This document shows, one piece after another, positions 1 to 7,549 of a DNA stretch of 7,549 nucleotides. The notes below the pieces were generated by a model that saw only the letters and a program-made list of their open reading frames with translations, did not search any database and was not told the origin of the DNA. The position numbers were made by a program, and so were the translations under genes. This DNA comes from a virus (Monodnaviria > Loebvirae > Hofneiviricota > Faserviricetes > Tubulavirales > Inoviridae): the IMG/VR virus record IMGVR_UViG_2579778797_000001, positions 1 to 7,549 of that record. One strand, written 5' to 3'. The stretch's first letter is position 1, and every line of letters begins with the position of its first letter.

Positions 1-1215
<1,215 letters not shown>

Positions 1216-1229
1216 TTACCCCCGCAAAA

Positions 1230-1589
1230 TTACTTGCCAACATTAAGCCCATTTGATTTAAATAAATCATAAACCAATCGATACACTCTATCCTTATAAA
1301 GATATATGTATGAAATAAATTGAACATGGAGGATGATATTAAAACAGTACTGAATATTTAAAGGAAGGTAACTGAATGCAACTACAATAACATCGAGTTT
1401 ATTAACATCGGAGATTTGACGAATAATAAAATTGACGGCAGATACAAGAGCATAATATGAAGTGTAGCAAAGACCAAGATAAGAAAGGAGCTTAGCCCAT
1501 GCAACAGCTTTATCACCGATAACTCCTGCAATGAAACGTAGTGATTTTAAAACAACATCAACAAAAAAAGCACCTAAAATGGCCCACAT
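1230..1589 (-). CDS. pVI-like minor coat protein (119 aa)
   Basis: Very hydrophobic ~119-aa protein sitting between pIII and pI as in Ff. C-terminal half resembles Ff pVI (ISD...LP.N...CF.IIL.V). Its ATG overlaps the pIII stop (TGATG) at 1587-1591. Confidence 0.8.
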   Translation of the reverse strand: MWAILGAFFVDVVLKSLRFIAGVIGDKAVAWAKLLSYLGLCYTSYYALVSAVNFIIRQISDVNKLDVIVVAFSYLPLNIQYCFNIILHVQFISYIYLYKDRVYRLVYDLFKSNGLNVGK

Positions 1590-2953
1590 CAGAGTTTTAC
1601 CTCACGTTCAAATAATGTACGGCGAGAAATAACAAAAACGCGTAACATGGTTATCATATAAATAGCATATTCAAGAACAGAACGAACATAATCGTCATAA
1701 GCTTTTGCAAAATGGCTTGTATCAATCTTGAAATTAATCGCGCCAATCAACGGAAGATTAAAGCTAAACTGTAAAGTAAAAGGAAGAGCAGTTCCATTAT
1801 TTGTATTTACCAGTTTGTCAATATTAACTGTAAGCCAATTGTTATTATCATGACTCTCACTTCCCTGTCCTGGCAAATAATGCGAAAGCTCCCCTAAAGG
1901 GAAATCCCCATCAGGCAAAGAAGAAGCTATATTCTGACTAATATCTTTAATACCATTGTCCAGTGAATTTAATGCATTATTCATATCAGCCTGAGAAACA
2001 GAAAAAGCATTATTTAAATCATTCACTGACACCCATATTGTTTTTAACCAGCCCAAAATACCATCAAGCCAGCCATTGTCATCGCCGGATGAGCCACCGG
2101 ATCCTGAACCTGAACTACCGCTACCGGATGAACCGCCGGAGCCCGAGCCGGAGCCACCGCTACCGGATGAACCACCGGAGCCAGAACCTGAACCACCACT
2201 GCCGGATGAGCCGCCGGAACCCGAGCCGGAGCCACCGCTACCGGATGAACCACCGGAGCCAGAACCTGAACCACCACCGGAACTGCCGCCGCCTGGGTTA
2301 CCACCACCGGAACTGCCACCACCTGAGCTACCGCCATCCTCCTTACCATCGGAGAATGCAGGATCTACAGCAACTGGTTTCCAGTCGGCAGTACAAACTG
2401 TATCATCATCGGGATTACAAATAAGAGGATTGCCGGTTGCCTCATAAATACACCCCTGCACATTAACATAACGGGTCCCGTCATCACCTTTATAAACATC
2501 AGAAAAAGTCATACCATCAAGAACCGGACGAGAAAGACAAATCTCGTCAGTTGGCGGCTTATTATATTCAGGTGTCAAATCCCCCTCACCACCCTGAAAA
2601 GCAAGGGTGCAGGCTGTCCACTTTTGCTTGTCTGAATCCCAGACTTTATATGCTGACCACCGGGCACGGACAAAAGACCCGACAGTCGAAGGTGCATTAA
2701 CAGGCGTTGAAAGTGGCACACCACAATAATGAATTATTCCGGAACATGCGTCATAATTGCCCGAACCACAGAAAAGATGACCGGCCGCCCTGGCTAATTT
2801 AATCGACGTCCCCGCGTCCGAATAATCTGTCCTGCAGGATGAATGGCCTGCACACTGAACAAGTGCATCCGGATTTTCTTTCTCTTCAGCGAAAGAAAAC
2901 GAGGAAAAGAACAAAAACAGAAGCGGAATAATAAAGTGAATCAAAAAAAACAC
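1589..2953 (-). CDS. pIII-like adsorption/minor coat protein (454 aa): signal peptide, Cys-rich N-terminal domains, Gly/Ser linker, C-terminal anchor domain
   Basis: Signal-like N-terminus (FFLIHFIIPLLFLFFSSFSFA). Motif RYVNVQGCIYEATGNPLICNPDDDTVCTADWKPV matches the Ff g3p N1 core (RYANYEGCLWNATGVVVCTGDETQCYGTWVPI, from memory). Gly/Ser linker at aa 207-290 and C-terminal hydrophobic anchor (YAIYMITMLRVFVISRR). Start is GTG at 2951-2953 with AGGAG directly upstream (spacing very short); exact start uncertain. Confidence 0.9.
   Translation of the reverse strand: MFFLIHFIIPLLFLFFSSFSFAEEKENPDALVQCAGHSSCRTDYSDAGTSIKLARAAGHLFCGSGNYDACSGIIHYCGVPLSTPVNAPSTVGSFVRARWSAYKVWDSDKQKWTACTLAFQGGEGDLTPEYNKPPTDEICLSRPVLDGMTFSDVYKGDDGTRYVNVQGCIYEATGNPLICNPDDDTVCTADWKPVAVDPAFSDGKEDGGSSGGGSSGGGNPGGGSSGGGSGSGSGGSSGSGGSGSGSGGSSGSGGSGSGSGGSSGSGGSGSGSGGSSGSGSSGSGSGGSSGDDNGWLDGILGWLKTIWVSVNDLNNAFSVSQADMNNALNSLDNGIKDISQNIASSLPDGDFPLGELSHYLPGQGSESHDNNNWLTVNIDKLVNTNNGTALPFTLQFSFNLPLIGAINFKIDTSHFAKAYDDYVRSVLEYAIYMITMLRVFVISRRTLFEREVKL
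2084..2335. repeat. In-frame imperfect tandem repeats encoding the pIII Gly/Ser linker (about 5 copies of a 39-bp unit, then 15-bp units)
   Basis: Minus-strand translation GGSSGSGGSGSGS repeated. The antisense frame reads PDEPPEPEPEPPL about 4-5 times, showing the 39-bp period directly. A near-identical block recurs after 78 bp (gagccggagccaccgctaccggatgaaccaccggagccagaacctgaacc). Confidence 0.85.
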
Positions 2954-2964
2954 TCCTGGTATGA

Positions 2965-2989
2965 TTAAAAAAGCGCCCCGGAGGGCGCT
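2965..2989 (-). terminator. Rho-independent terminator downstream of the pVIII-like gene
   Basis: On the minus strand a 7-bp GC stem (AGCGCCC / GGGCGCT, plus 2972-2978 and 2983-2989) with a 4-nt loop is followed by a run of six U (plus-strand A-run 2967-2972). Position matches the strong terminator after gene VIII in Ff. Confidence 0.8.
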
Positions 2990-3004
2990 GTCATTAAATA
3001 ACTA

Positions 3005-3265
<261 letters not shown>

Positions 3266-3271
3266 TTAAAA

Positions 3272-3442
3272 TTAATTAACAGCATCACTGAACATCCGGC
3301 AGACCAGAGTGAAAATAACACCAAGACCAAAGCCAAGAAGCCAGCAGACAATCCAGACATAAAGAACGGCCCAGTAAAGCTCCCCGTCCTGTACGCCAGA
3401 ATTCAGTGCGGATAAAACACCGCTGAAATCAAATTCAGTCAT
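3272..3442 (-). CDS. Small hydrophobic protein (56 aa from ATG at 3442, or 67 aa from GTG at 3475); possible pVII/pIX-type minor coat protein
   Basis: One strong TM segment (LYWAVLYVWIVCWLLGFGLGVIFTLV), located between the gV-position gene and pVIII as gVII/gIX are in Ff. No clear Shine-Dalgarno before either start; overlaps the upstream small ORF by 8 nt. Confidence 0.5.
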   Translation of the reverse strand: MTEFDFSGVLSALNSGVQDGELYWAVLYVWIVCWLLGFGLGVIFTLVCRMFSDAVN

Positions 3443-3575
3443 AATAACGCTGAACAGTAATGCTTTGTGAGTCACAGGCGCGAATCAGTTTTATTCCGAT
3501 GCCAAAACCTGAAGAAAATAAAATCATTGCAGGCGCAGCAAATAAAACAAAGTTCAGAAAATCAGCGTCAGACAT
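3435..3575 (-). CDS. Small hydrophobic protein (46 aa from ATG at 3575); possible minor coat protein
   Basis: ATG at 3573-3575 lies 4 nt after the stop of the 141-aa ORF, with AAGG upstream. Single TM segment (FLNFVLFAAPAMILFSSGFGIGI). The track start at 3629 is TTG and overlaps the upstream gene, so the shorter form is preferred. Confidence 0.45.
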   Translation of the reverse strand: MSDADFLNFVLFAAPAMILFSSGFGIGIKLIRACDSQSITVQRYYD

Positions 3576-3579
3576 ATCA

Positions 3580-4005
3580 TCAGCCTTTTTCTTTACCTGC
3601 GGGCAGTGCACCCAGCGGCTGACCGTCAAAACGTTTCATGGAGCCGGAAATAAAACGATACCAGACACCATGACGTTCTGAGCCTGTCGACCATGAGTTA
3701 ACATCCACCGTGAGATAAACAGGTTTGCCCTGCAAATCAGGACATGAATTAAAAAATTTAAAATCCTCCTCAGTACAGGAAAATCGCTCATGCTCCTCAC
3801 GGCGGACTTTTAATTTTCGGTCCTCATACGGATAGGCAATAACAATGGCATATTTGGGTTTAGCCTCAGGGTTATAATGAGAACCCGTGGGTTTTAACTC
3901 CTCATCATTTATGACAGTGGCGTGAATAAAATATCCCGCCATTGTCATGCCTGAGGTAAAACCCTCAGGGGAAGGAAACGGAAAACTGTCGTAAATTTGA
4001 TTCAT
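3580..4005 (-). CDS. Hypothetical protein (141 aa) in the position of the ssDNA-binding/RstB-type gene
   Basis: ATG at 4003-4005 preceded by GAGGAG at about 9 nt; starts 30 nt after the Rep stop. Function is inferred from position only; no motif recognised. Confidence 0.7.
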   Translation of the reverse strand: MNQIYDSFPFPSPEGFTSGMTMAGYFIHATVINDEELKPTGSHYNPEAKPKYAIVIAYPYEDRKLKVRREEHERFSCTEEDFKFFNSCPDLQGKPVYLTVDVNSWSTGSERHGVWYRFISGSMKRFDGQPLGALPAGKEKG

Positions 4006-4035
4006 AAAGCAGACTCCTCAATGTTAAAAATTCAG

Positions 4036-6277
<2,242 letters not shown>

Positions 6278-6410
6278 GACCTCATGTCCTCATGATGACA
6301 AACAAAAAAGAACATACTCAAAAAACATCATGAACACAAGATGTATTAACAACATTTGCTCAAGTGCTCTAGAGTACATGATGGCTAAATACAAAAAAGG
6401 GGGCTAAATA
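6278..6410. promoter_or_regulatory. Divergent intergenic control region between the Rep operon and the RHH gene, with short repeats (candidate operators and/or origin)
   Basis: AT-rich 133 bp. CATGATG at 6291-6297 and 6377-6383 and inverted (CATCATG) at 6326-6332. Tandem CCTCATG at 6280-6286 and 6288-6294. Palindrome CTCTAGAG at about 6367-6374. No convincing sigma70 hexamers could be assigned by eye. Confidence 0.4.
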
Positions 6411-6611
6411 ATGGCTGAAAAAAGAAAGAGTTATAACGTGCCAAACGAGAAGTATCTAAAGCTAGAAAGATTAGCTATTGATGCAAGTCAAAAGATAGGA
6501 AGGAGCATAAAATGGACCGAAGTACTGTCTTACATGATAGATCACTACGCAAAAGACGCAGCAATAGATATGGTAAGTCAGGAAGAACTTAAGAAAAAAA
6601 AGGCAATGTGA
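6411..6611 (+). CDS. Small ribbon-helix-helix (CopG/Arc-like) putative transcriptional regulator (66 aa), divergent from the Rep operon
   Basis: ATG at 6411 preceded by AAGGGGG. N-terminal basic beta-strand-like segment (KRKSYNVP) followed by two predicted helices (EKYLKLERLAI; KWTEVLSYMIDHYAK), typical of RHH repressors. Position is analogous to rstR in CTXphi. Confidence 0.6.
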   Translation: MAEKRKSYNVPNEKYLKLERLAIDASQKIGRSIKWTEVLSYMIDHYAKDAAIDMVSQEELKKKKAM

Positions 6612-6674
6612 TCCCTTTCCCAACGTCAAACAAACAGGCCAGGAAAGATCAAAGGAAAAGTTAAACAAGGAAAT

Positions 6675-6830
6675 ATGCAGATAACCAGTGACTTAATCCT
6701 TGACCTGCTGATAAAGCATTTCGTTGTTGGCAGCATCACAGGCATGACAATATTCAGCCTGATAACGCTTGTCCCACCGTTGGTGATGACCATACACAAA
6801 AAACTAAGTAAGGACACTGAAATCCTTTAA
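6675..6830 (+). CDS. Small membrane peptide (51 aa), not in the ORF track; co-oriented with and downstream of the RHH gene
   Basis: ATG at 6675 with AAGGA just upstream. Translation MQITSDLILDLLIKHFVVGSITGMTIFSLITLVPPLVMTIHKKLSKDTEIL has one TM helix followed by a basic tail. Stop at 6828-6830 is 30 nt before the terminator at 6860-6899. Confidence 0.35.
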   Translation: MQITSDLILDLLIKHFVVGSITGMTIFSLITLVPPLVMTIHKKLSKDTEIL

Positions 6831-6859
6831 GGTTCAGTGCGCACAATGACGTTATGTAT

Positions 6860-6899
6860 AAAAAGGCCGCTGCGGTGGAGAGTATCGCAGCGGCCTTTT
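6860..6899. terminator. Bidirectional rho-independent terminator at the prophage edge
   Basis: Perfect 10-bp stem GGCCGCTGCG / CGCAGCGGCC (6865-6874 and 6886-6895) with an 11-nt loop, flanked by AAAAA (6860-6864) and TTTT (6896-6899), giving a U-run on both strands. Confidence 0.75.
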
Positions 6900-6929
6900 C
6901 AACATAACGCGTGTCACATTATGCGCACC
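6897..6929. other. dif-like XerC/XerD recombination site; prophage-host junction
   Basis: Minus strand reads GGTGCGCATAA TGT GACACGCG TTATGTTGAAA. The first 14 nt equal E. coli dif (GGTGCGCATAATGTATATTATGTTAAAT, from memory), then the sequence diverges. A XerD-arm-like TTATGTTGAAA (9/11) lies 11 bp from the XerC arm instead of 6 bp. Confidence 0.7.
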
Positions 6930-7005
6930 AATATAAACCAAGGAAGAATCCAGTCGTTGGCGGTCATGATTGTCATGCTCATTAACAATGACCAAACCCC
7001 ATATC

Positions 7006-7209
7006 TCACTTACTACCGTATTCTCGGCTTAACCGTCCATGCAACCTCAACACATTGCTTTCAACTGCCGTCACCACGTTCTCCGGAAAATCTGTCGGTA
7101 ATGAAGTCTTCACGTTATCCAGTGCTGCTGGAATCATTCTGGCAAAGTCACTCAGGATTTCATGCATCTGCACTTCCGGGAATCTCAGCACCTTTGCTGT
7201 CGCCAAAAA
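7006..7209 (-). pseudogene. hipA: 3' fragment of hipA (HipA toxin kinase C-terminal ~67 codons); gene truncated at its 5' side
   Basis: Translation FLATAKVLRFPEVQMHEILSDFARMIPAALDNVKTSLPTDFPENVVTAVESNVLRLHGRLSREYGSK matches my memory of the E. coli HipA C-terminus. The frame is closed by a TGA immediately upstream (7210-7212), so no full-length hipA is possible. HipB operators lie 25 bp away. Confidence 0.6.
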
Positions 7210-7234
7210 TCATGTCATACGTCCACAGCAAGTT

Positions 7235-7347
7235 TATCCGCTTAAGGGGATATTATAAGTTTTATCCTTTAGTGAGGATAAGTCAATCTGGAAACACATC
7301 TTATCCGCTCTACGGGATAAACGCTGCGATATCCGCGATCGCGGATA
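7235..7347 (-). promoter_or_regulatory. hipBA promoter-operator region: four HipB operator palindromes TATCC-N8-GGATA
   Basis: Exact TATCC-N8-GGATA at 7235-7252, 7263-7280, 7302-7319 and 7330-7347 (the last an 18-bp perfect palindrome TATCCGCGATCGCGGATA). Centre spacings are 28, 39 and 28 bp. This matches the published HipB operator consensus and four-operator organisation. Confidence 0.75.
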
Positions 7348-7399
7348 AAAAGGAGGATTTAAATAAGGCGTTGATGCGCCGTTTGAAGTCGGCAATATT

Positions 7400-7428
7400 A
7401 AGCCGCATGCCATCTCGACATGCGGCTT
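7400..7428. other. Inverted repeat / hairpin just downstream of the autotransporter-like gene (possible weak terminator)
   Basis: AAGCCGCATG (7400-7409) pairs with CATGCGGCTT (7419-7428) around a 9-nt loop. Flanks are A/T-rich but there is no clean U-run on either strand. Confidence 0.35.
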
Positions 7429-7435
7429 ATACGGT

Positions 7436-7549
7436 TTACCAGCTATATTTCACTCCCAGCATGCCCTGAGTATCGCTATAGCCTTTATCACCTAGTTGCA
7501 CACCGACATTCCCCCACAGGCTAAGGTTGTTAGTGACATTTCCCGACAT
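7436..7549 (-). CDS. 3' end (last 37 codons) of an outer-membrane autotransporter-like gene continuing beyond the window (yneO/ydeU-like position upstream of hipB)
   Basis: Minus-strand frame open to the window edge; translation ...GNVGVQLGDKGYSDTQGMLGVKYSW then TAA at 7436-7438. Alternating hydrophobic residues and a terminal aromatic (YSW) are typical of the last beta-strand of autotransporter barrels. In E. coli K-12 an autotransporter pseudogene lies directly upstream of hipB (memory). Confidence 0.5.
   Translation of the reverse strand: MSGNVTNNLSLWGNVGVQLGDKGYSDTQGMLGVKYSW

Follow-up and report, generated by a model that had tools for sequence, protein, structure and literature searches.

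Gene content of the window

The window, that is, the whole 7,549-nucleotide stretch of DNA analysed here, carries the right-hand part of a filamentous prophage followed by E. coli chromosomal DNA with what is left of the hipBA operon. The locus is mostly ordinary, and both of its parts, a phage attachment hairpin and a gutted hipBA operon, are known kinds of features. The prophage part contains the following elements.

1-6918, minus strand: inovirus prophage, right-hand part (Pfam matches; tandem copies in a relative)
1-1212, minus strand: Zot/pI ORF (Pfam Zot, 2.5e-9)
Between the Zot/pI and pIII-like entries, minus strand: 119-aa ORF of the right-hand part of the prophage
1589-2953, minus strand: pIII-like protein, 454 aa (Pfam Phage_Coat_A, 6.4e-9)
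Within the prophage, minus strand: small coat-like ORFs (weak PHROG match to major coat protein)
4036-6138, minus strand: GPA/RstA-type Rep, 700 aa (Pfam Phage_GPA, 2.8e-48)
6411-6611, plus strand: 66-aa phage ORF, oriented toward the hairpin described below
6675-6830, plus strand: 51-aa phage ORF, hydrophobic as read from the sequence, also oriented toward the hairpin

A Zot/pI ATPase, a pIII-like protein, a rolling-circle Rep and small coat proteins, all encoded on one strand, identify the element as an inovirus by Pfam and PHROG matches. No integrase gene was seen within the phage part covered by the window. The nearest complete genome is that of strain 100416 (L001), which shares 98.6% identity across 92% of the window. 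There the phage forms a tandem array beside an intact hipBA, in copies of 8,739 bp to which a secretin gene belongs. The GenBank phage collection held no nucleotide match to the prophage or to the hairpin, and the Rep protein found only 29-33% matches in it. Rep is 29-30% identical to the Rep proteins of the Vibrio phages VFJ and fs2 and to RstA of CTXphi, and no relatives of it were found in species-representative genomes. Because there is no DNA match and the Rep matches reach only 29-33%, no named phage can be assigned as the source. The 66-aa ORF has no Pfam match and belongs with phrog_2503, a family of unknown function (E = 7e-27). A single-sequence model of it, of low confidence (pLDDT 65.6), has two helices behind a disordered N-terminus. 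A ribbon-helix-helix (RHH) regulator, the type named for the divergent operon in a preliminary description of this DNA, would show a beta-strand at the N-terminus ahead of its two helices and a match to an RHH family, so the RHH label is at most tentative. A counterpart ORF with a differing sequence is annotated at the same position in a relative.

The attachment hairpin

A preliminary description of this DNA had placed a perfect inverted repeat just inside the prophage and had called it a bidirectional terminator. The repeat was confirmed. Its arms (6861-6874 and 6886-6899) are 14 nt each, 11 nt apart and 100% complementary, and with a crossover interval of 6916-6928 the repeat sits 20-58 nt inside the filamentous prophage. 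The features of this region are listed below.

6831-6939, minus strand (phage coding strand): complete folded attP(+)-type hairpin, about 100 nt (DNA and RNA folds)
6836-6862, plus strand: phage dif-like site A, with XerC-like arm AGTGCGCACAA, 5-nt centre TGACG and XerD-like arm TTATGTATAAA (repeats I8 and I9)
6861-6899, either strand: apex stem-loop of the attP hairpin, earlier named a bidirectional terminator (14/14 complementary arms)
6897-6929, minus strand: hybrid site B (K-12 alignment; comparison with the tandem junction)

The apex repeat is made up of a GC core (6865-6874 and 6886-6895), A and T runs and a loop (6875-6885). Three inverted repeats (I9, I8 and I4) are nested here and form one hairpin, with the apex repeat at the centre. 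It is enclosed by paired XerD-like arms at 6850-6863 and 6896-6909 (86% complementary) and by paired XerC-like arms at 6837-6848 and 6917-6928 (92% complementary). The layout of the 6831-6939 hairpin is a XerC-arm duplex, a 6-nt bulge corresponding to the central region, a XerD-arm duplex and the GC clamp. Folding of this segment gave -37.7 kcal/mol (z = -9.25) for the minus-strand DNA and -62.8 kcal/mol (z = -10.05) for the RNA. The inverted-repeat fold has a z of about -10 on either strand, and none of 200 shuffled sequences folded equally well. Judged from its sequence and predicted fold, the presumed terminator is the GC-rich tip of a CTX-type attP(+) hairpin.

Sites A and B are close together and mutually inverted, as in CTX-type attachment sites. 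Site B has a host XerC arm, GGTGCGCATAA (6929-6919), an 11-nt centre, TGTGACACGCG (6918-6908), and a phage XerD-like arm, TTATGTTGAAA (6907-6897). It starts with the host-type G (6929) and is identical to K-12 dif through GGTGCGCATAATGT, after which the sequence is that of the phage. At the phage-phage junction in a tandem lysogen, the same position of site B is occupied by A, giving the arm AGTGCGCATAA. The earlier claim that transcription crosses a dif-like site was correct in that such a site is present, but the site is a hybrid, and the 28-bp dif of E. coli has no match in the window at up to three mismatches. The central regions of the two sites, 11 and 5 nt, also differ from the 6 bp that separate the 11-bp XerC and XerD arms of dif. 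Site B is, as its composition indicates, a dead hybrid and not a functional dif. In a tandem-lysogen relative (L067, 4897-4924), the far end reads AGTGCGCATAA-TGTATA-TTATGTTAAAT, a rebuilt dif composed of the phage XerC arm, the host central region and the host XerD arm. The junctions follow the pattern of XerC exchange, with the hybrid end located in the window and the rebuilt dif seen only in that relative. By analogy, the working dif of the present strain should sit at the other prophage end, beyond the window. Only site B has recombined. On the minus strand, which codes for Zot, pIII and Rep, its XerC arm precedes its XerD arm, and this orientation marks that strand as the integrating one, a result that agrees with the packaged (+) strand serving as substrate.

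The closest model is CTXphi of V. cholerae, whose attP(+) is a folded single-strand attachment site (Val et al. 2005, reviewed in PMC4246890) with inverted dif-like sites that have central regions of 12 and 5-7 nt (PMC4246890). The same arrangement is found here: two inverted dif-like sites that would pair in the packaged strand, unequal centres (11 and 5 nt), dif homology confined to the XerC side (TGT), tandem arrays, and a dead hybrid at one prophage end with a rebuilt dif at the other, the latter seen in the relative. The differences lie in the spacer between the sites, which measures 34 nt here (6863-6896; about 37 in most variants) instead of 90 and consists of a single perfect GC-rich clamp, in the host, E. 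coli, whose single dif is the target, and in a Rep that is only about 30% identical to RstA. Ypfphi and CUS-1phi are listed as CTX-type members (PMC4246890), and Ypfphi has inverted XerC/D sites with dif rebuilt at one end (PMC4266046). The Y. pestis junction (L022) agrees with the window in its arms and in the GGCCGCTGCG/CGCAGCGGCC clamp. Ypfphi and CUS-1 of E. coli O18:K1:H7 also resemble the present phage in their integration at dif, tandem copies and unit of about 8.7 kb (PMC4266046; 8,739 bp here, from strain 100416), as well as in the order Zot, secretin, attP, divergent regulator and Rep. Ypfphi differs in having a Rep of the G2P type, whereas that of the window is of the 700-aa GPA/RstA type, and an HTH_3 protein as regulator in place of the 66-aa ORF, which lacks a Pfam match.

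A DNA pattern derived from the attP arms was used to search species-representative genomes and viral contigs. Matches were found in eight of the former, including Yersinia pestis, Enterobacter, Kluyvera, Lelliottia, Phytobacter and Rosenbergiella, and in 42 of the latter. They represent 36 distinct sequences, 34 of them alignable. Among these 34 variants, 28 have an identical 10-bp GC core, while the 31 variants that could be parsed have 18 different loops. The consensus fold over the 34 variants has 32 pairs; at six of them, one or more sequences carry a compensatory double change. This covariation cannot separate a DNA hairpin from an RNA terminator because both need identical pairs. Part of the module was matched in 929 of 5,426 complete E. 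coli genomes, and it also occurs in lysogens with an intact hipBA, an O55:H7 prophage with hipBA intact next to it being one example. The Y. pestis copy lies at the junction between Zot-secretin and HTH-repressor-G2P genes, an arrangement known from descriptions of Ypfphi. When the phage ORFs of the window were compared with 8 kb of sequence surrounding the Y. pestis attP, no protein similarity was detectable. Since the proteins show no detectable relationship and the attP sites are alike, attP is a module common to otherwise different phages.

The hipBA remnant and its promoter

Between about 7530 and 6916, the host DNA matches K-12-like DNA at 100% identity, interrupted only by a single alignment gap of 1,381 bp. 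The following features were identified on the host side.

Right end of the window, first in minus-strand order: autotransporter gene, 3' end
7399-7429: small hairpin between the autotransporter 3' end and the HipB operators
7235-7347, minus strand: hipBA regulatory region with four HipB operators (four exact copies of TATCCN8GGATA)
7252-7257, minus strand: perfect -10 hexamer, TATAAT (read from the sequence)
7160-7213, minus strand: 17-codon ORF MIFGDSKGAEIPGSADA*, in which the hipB start codon (7213-7211) is fused out of frame to hipA (translation; K-12 alignment)
7209-7210, no strand: junction of the 1,381-bp deletion (single alignment gap of 1,381 columns)
7006-7209, minus strand: hipA stub, codons 374-440 plus stop (alignment; translation; annotated hipA in relatives)

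The deletion begins just past the hipB ATG and reaches as far as the first base of hipA codon 374, removing hipB codons 2-88 and hipA codons 1-373. At the junction (7210/7209) there is 1 nt of microhomology, a T, and no dif-like sequence, and for these reasons the event looks like an ordinary illegitimate deletion. A Xer- or phage-mediated deletion was considered and rejected on the same grounds. The stub cannot encode an intact kinase because the first 373 of the 440 HipA residues are missing; it has no start codon of its own save an internal TTG, with no evident ribosome-binding site there as read from the sequence. Of the components of a hipBA type II toxin-antitoxin module, the operators are present but hipB and a full-length hipA are not. 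The locus is a remnant and not a functional module. None of the 5,426 complete E. coli genomes contained the deletion junction as one piece, and eight of them had other partial hipBA deletions.

The control region, in contrast to the coding sequences, has been kept. The preliminary description was right in stating that it is intact while hipB and the kinase part of hipA are lost, as shown by the four operators, the identity with K-12 and the 1,381-bp gap. The HipB operators, at 7235-7252, 7263-7280, 7302-7319 and 7330-7347, are exact, where none is expected by chance. Identity to K-12 is 100% across the regulatory DNA, including the operators, the hipB ribosome-binding region and the start codon. 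The likely -35 element is TTATCC (7281-7276), a weak match located at a spacing of 18 nt from the -10 hexamer. Another candidate, TTGACT (7286-7281), was rejected since it lies 23 nt from TATAAT, which is too far. A consensus promoter scan made no call in 7210-7400.

HipB is known to repress its own operon through operators of consensus TATCCN8GGATA, with HipA acting as a co-repressor at the hipBA promoter (PMC3920265, PMC3376134). A promoter of identical sequence is known to need repression (PMC3920265), and IHF was reported to activate the hipBA promoter (PMC7167474). Because hipB is deleted at the locus, so that no HipB would be made from it, derepression of the orphan promoter is a reasonable expectation, provided that the genome has no second hipB beyond the window.

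As read from the sequence, the promoter does point along the minus strand toward the prophage, in agreement with the preliminary description. That it is aimed at dif, as stated there, does not set this strain apart. In every E. coli hipBA faces dif, and nothing resembling a terminator separates the two, so this is the native geometry. The distance from the end of hipA to dif in K-12 is about 80 bp, and a scan from the hipA stop codon to dif and over roughly 700 bp past dif found no terminator-like site. The locus thus shares with K-12 hipBA its position and orientation beside dif and its regulatory DNA; it differs in that the antitoxin/repressor and the kinase are gone and that a prophage, in place of dif, lies downstream.

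Possible transcription termination and interpretation of the locus

The hairpin has several attributes of a terminator. The minus-strand RNA would form a stem of -20.7 kcal/mol followed by the tail UUUUUAUA (6/8 U), and the plus-strand RNA a stem of -25.1 kcal/mol followed by UUUUCAAC (4/8 U). Loop size at the apex is 11 nt for the minus strand and, counting G-U pairs, 5 nt for the plus strand. A simple terminator scan passed over the hairpin on both strands: the minus-strand loop of 11 nt exceeds the limit of 8 (range, 3-8), and the plus-strand tail has only four T. At the tandem junction, about 53 nt separate the secretin stop codon from the hairpin, and the stop codon of the 51-aa ORF ends 5 nt before site A. 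In the circular or tandem phage, transcription units thus converge on the hairpin from both sides. The likeness to a bidirectional Rho-independent terminator consists, then, of a perfect GC-rich stem, flanking A and T runs and convergent units in the circular phage. The differences are the 11-nt loop on one strand, the 4-U tract on the other and the overlap of the A/T runs with recombinase-binding arms, since the XerD-like arms take in the outer 3 nt of each run.

The variants give a mixed picture. In a divergent one (L040), the apex GCCCTC-GATA-GAGGGC followed by T8 is a textbook terminator. In 20 of the 31 parsed variants the minus-strand tail is TCTTTAG, a weak U-tract, so that termination in the minus direction is not obviously selected. 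Another variant (L043) keeps the pairing with AAATAGG/CCTATT while its T-run is broken. As pairing is maintained there at the cost of the T-run, the pattern fits selection for the hairpin rather than for the U-tract.

The RNA between promoter and hairpin (7245-6900) is G-rich, with a C/G of 0.25-1.05, and would therefore be a poor substrate for Rho. Rho-dependent termination within the untranslated stub is for this reason unlikely, and transcripts, once started, would probably reach the hairpin. If the hairpin failed, read-through would first be antisense to the two plus-strand ORFs and would then enter the Rep operon in the sense direction. A terminator at this place may thus have a plausible reason to exist, because read-through would enter the Rep operon. 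The claim of a bidirectional terminator at 6860-6899 survives in part: a very stable hairpin with A/T runs is placed where it could stop transcription from either side, but the scan did not call it. We consider the odds that it has a real terminator role roughly even, and it could plausibly stop read-in from hipBA.

Taken together, the data are best explained by a CTX-type integration at dif, a separate deletion in hipBA and a promoter RNA that probably ends at the clamp, an explanation that we regard as highly probable. A filamentous phage would have used the CTX-type route to integrate into the E. coli chromosome at dif, directly downstream of hipA. The packaged strand, corresponding to the minus strand of the window, would fold into a hairpin of about 100 nt in which paired dif-like sites imitate dif and a 10-bp GC clamp at the tip holds the two sites together. 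XerC would exchange one strand at the border of the XerC arm, and replication would then fix the prophage. The hipA side would be left with the dead hybrid, then the clamp (6861-6899) and then the second phage site, while a working dif would be rebuilt at the opposite prophage end. The separate illegitimate deletion of 1,381 bp left the promoter and operators, a 17-codon junk ORF and the 67 C-terminal codons of hipA. We infer that the promoter, receiving no HipB from the locus, would work at its unrepressed level, and that the RNA would extend through the stub and across hybrid site B and probably end at the clamp, where a strong stem precedes UUUUUAUA. In the circular phage, the clamp would close two operons, one on each strand: the long structural operon, just past the secretin gene, and the small regulatory operon. 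Once the phage has integrated, the clamp would shield the phage regulator and replication switch from host read-in. More tentatively, and with less confidence than we place in the integration pathway, the GC clamp of CTX-type attP hairpins in inoviruses of enterobacteria may be dual-purpose. It would nucleate the fold recognized by XerCD as single-stranded DNA, act as RNA as a bidirectional terminator that closes both phage operons, and serve after integration as a shield from hipBA, one that would be under constant load here with HipB gone.

The preliminary description had instead viewed the hairpin as an insulating terminator at the prophage edge. A role as a dedicated insulator there is unlikely: the hairpin is also present in the free or tandem form of the phage, in lysogens with intact hipBA and in 34 enterobacterial inovirus variants. 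The stronger version of that proposal, in which the hairpin is primarily a bidirectional intrinsic terminator evolved at the edge and its relation to dif is incidental, draws on the strong stems on both strands with their flanking A/T runs, on a location at the 3' ends of both phage transcription units and on the classical terminator that the divergent variant has at the same place. Yet two inverted dif-like arms enclose the stem and run on from it without a break, and the outer 3 nt of each A/T run are bases of the XerD-like arms. The non-integrated and tandem contexts also imply that this is not an edge feature, and most variants have a weak minus-strand U-tract, with the terminator scan failing on both strands. 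We judge this version improbable. Filamentous phages suggest another role for a hairpin in single-stranded DNA. Ff phages keep a packaging hairpin after gene IV, and the main function of the present one could be, as in the Ff intergenic region at that place, that of a packaging signal or minus-strand origin rather than a substrate for Xer recombination. Long, imperfectly paired and located on the packaged strand, it directly follows the secretin (gene IV-like) gene in the circular form. The XerC and XerD half-sites are nevertheless recognizable and the junctions are exactly those that XerC exchange predicts, which makes such a main role very improbable; the roles are in any case not mutually exclusive.

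A further alternative concerns the promoter, which may be functionally irrelevant, part of a decaying toxin-antitoxin remnant with a low output or with transcripts that end or decay before 6899, in which case the prophage would receive nothing of consequence from it. The weak -35, the absence of a call by the promoter scan and an RNA in which the 17-codon ORF alone would be translated, leaving about 260 nt untranslated, are compatible with this possibility, and the partial hipBA deletions in eight complete genomes are consistent with neutral decay. Against it stand the perfect TATAAT, the 100% identity to a promoter known to need repression (PMC3920265), the activation reported for IHF (PMC7167474), the G-rich RNA that is poor for Rho and the lack of a terminator-like site between the hipA stop codon and dif in K-12. 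Irrelevance of the promoter has, in our opinion, a lesser but appreciable chance of being correct. The explanation by CTX-type integration followed by transcription into the clamp is preferred.

The locus is a phage attachment hairpin of a known type together with a strain-specific deletion allele of a well-known operon. It leaves current understanding unchanged, and the only slightly new idea, drawn from the sequence, is that an attP clamp might double as a terminator. The locus illustrates a trap for annotation, since the combination of a perfect terminator and a dif-like site at the edge of a prophage marks a CTX-type attachment hairpin, whose adjoining dif-like site is not the working dif of the cell. 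The attP module is common to inoviruses of E. coli and Yersinia with otherwise unrelated replication and regulatory genes. As for the deletion allele, it is a natural hipBA promoter free of toxin and repressor, and could be used to report the unrepressed activity.

A possible cargo slot beside the attachment site

In CTXphi, ctxAB is carried in the slot beside attP, the folded attachment site whose arms are two inverted dif-like sites. The hipA-dif position of E. coli O55:H7 DEC5E (locus L019) is occupied by a filamentous prophage different from the one in the window, with a G2P/II-X type Rep and an HTH regulator. The equivalent slot of this prophage holds instead the gene of a TIR-domain protein. 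Because this gene takes the position of ctxAB in CTXphi, the comparison suggests that the slot beside attP is a cargo site able to hold defence-type genes. The regions compared in this and the next section were as follows.

L019 2885-4099 (E. coli O55:H7 DEC5E): TIR-domain protein gene region, immediately adjoining the attP hairpin
L018 2501-2569 (plasmid NZ_CP062915.1): partial attP copy, counterpart of window 6837-6906
L040 3801-3893 (IMG/VR contig): attP variant with a divergent spacer
L023 5731-5818 (Candidatus Nanosynbacter MAG contig): attP hairpin
L025 7076-7138 (Chlamydiae MAG): match to the attP pattern

Plasmid copies, variants and unexpected hosts of attP

A segment running from site A (a phage dif-like site) through the GC clamp at the hairpin apex into the second arm was matched at 484 places on many E. 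coli plasmids, with about 84% identity. One of these plasmids, NZ_CP062915.1, was inspected: a gene of the STM4504/CBY_0614 family directly precedes the partial attP copy, and an IS200C fragment adjoins its truncated end. This copy looks like what is left, stranded, of an element that integrates at dif and of the cargo gene it carried.

The L040 variant retains the dif-like arms around a completely different spacer, in which lies a hairpin resembling a classical terminator, AAAAAGCCCTC-GATA-GAGGGCTTTTTTTT. The hairpin assigned to Candidatus Nanosynbacter is identical to the Y. pestis type, and this suggests that L023 is an enterobacterial contig mis-binned into that MAG. The Chlamydiae match, only 63 nt long and lacking the GC clamp, looks like a chance or unrelated one.

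The hipBA locus and the host DNA beside it

Eight complete E. coli genomes (H61-H68) have internal hipBA deletions different from that of the window; the two halves of the query spanning the window's deletion junction lie 273-689 bp apart in them, versus about 1.5 kb otherwise. It appears that hipBA decays repeatedly among natural isolates. Upstream of the hipBA operators, and just 3′ of the autotransporter stop codon, is the following feature.

Window 7399-7429: perfect 11-bp inverted repeat, TAAGCCGCATG/CATGCGGCTTA, identical in K-12

The repeat, which is without a clear T-run, is probably the terminator hairpin of the autotransporter gene. Alignment showed 100% identity to K-12 from about window position 7530 down to dif, whereas the final 18 nt or so (7532-7549, within the autotransporter gene) differ. 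BLAST matches end at 7542.

A probable divergent phage promoter region

Two divergent phage ORFs, of 82 aa (minus strand) and 66 aa (plus strand), are separated by a gap of 133 bp that includes the following elements.

Window 6326-6383: inverted repeats with imperfect arms, plus a palindrome (I6, I7)

These elements overlap a promoter-like site (6346-6375). The region is probably the operator and divergent-promoter switch of the phage.
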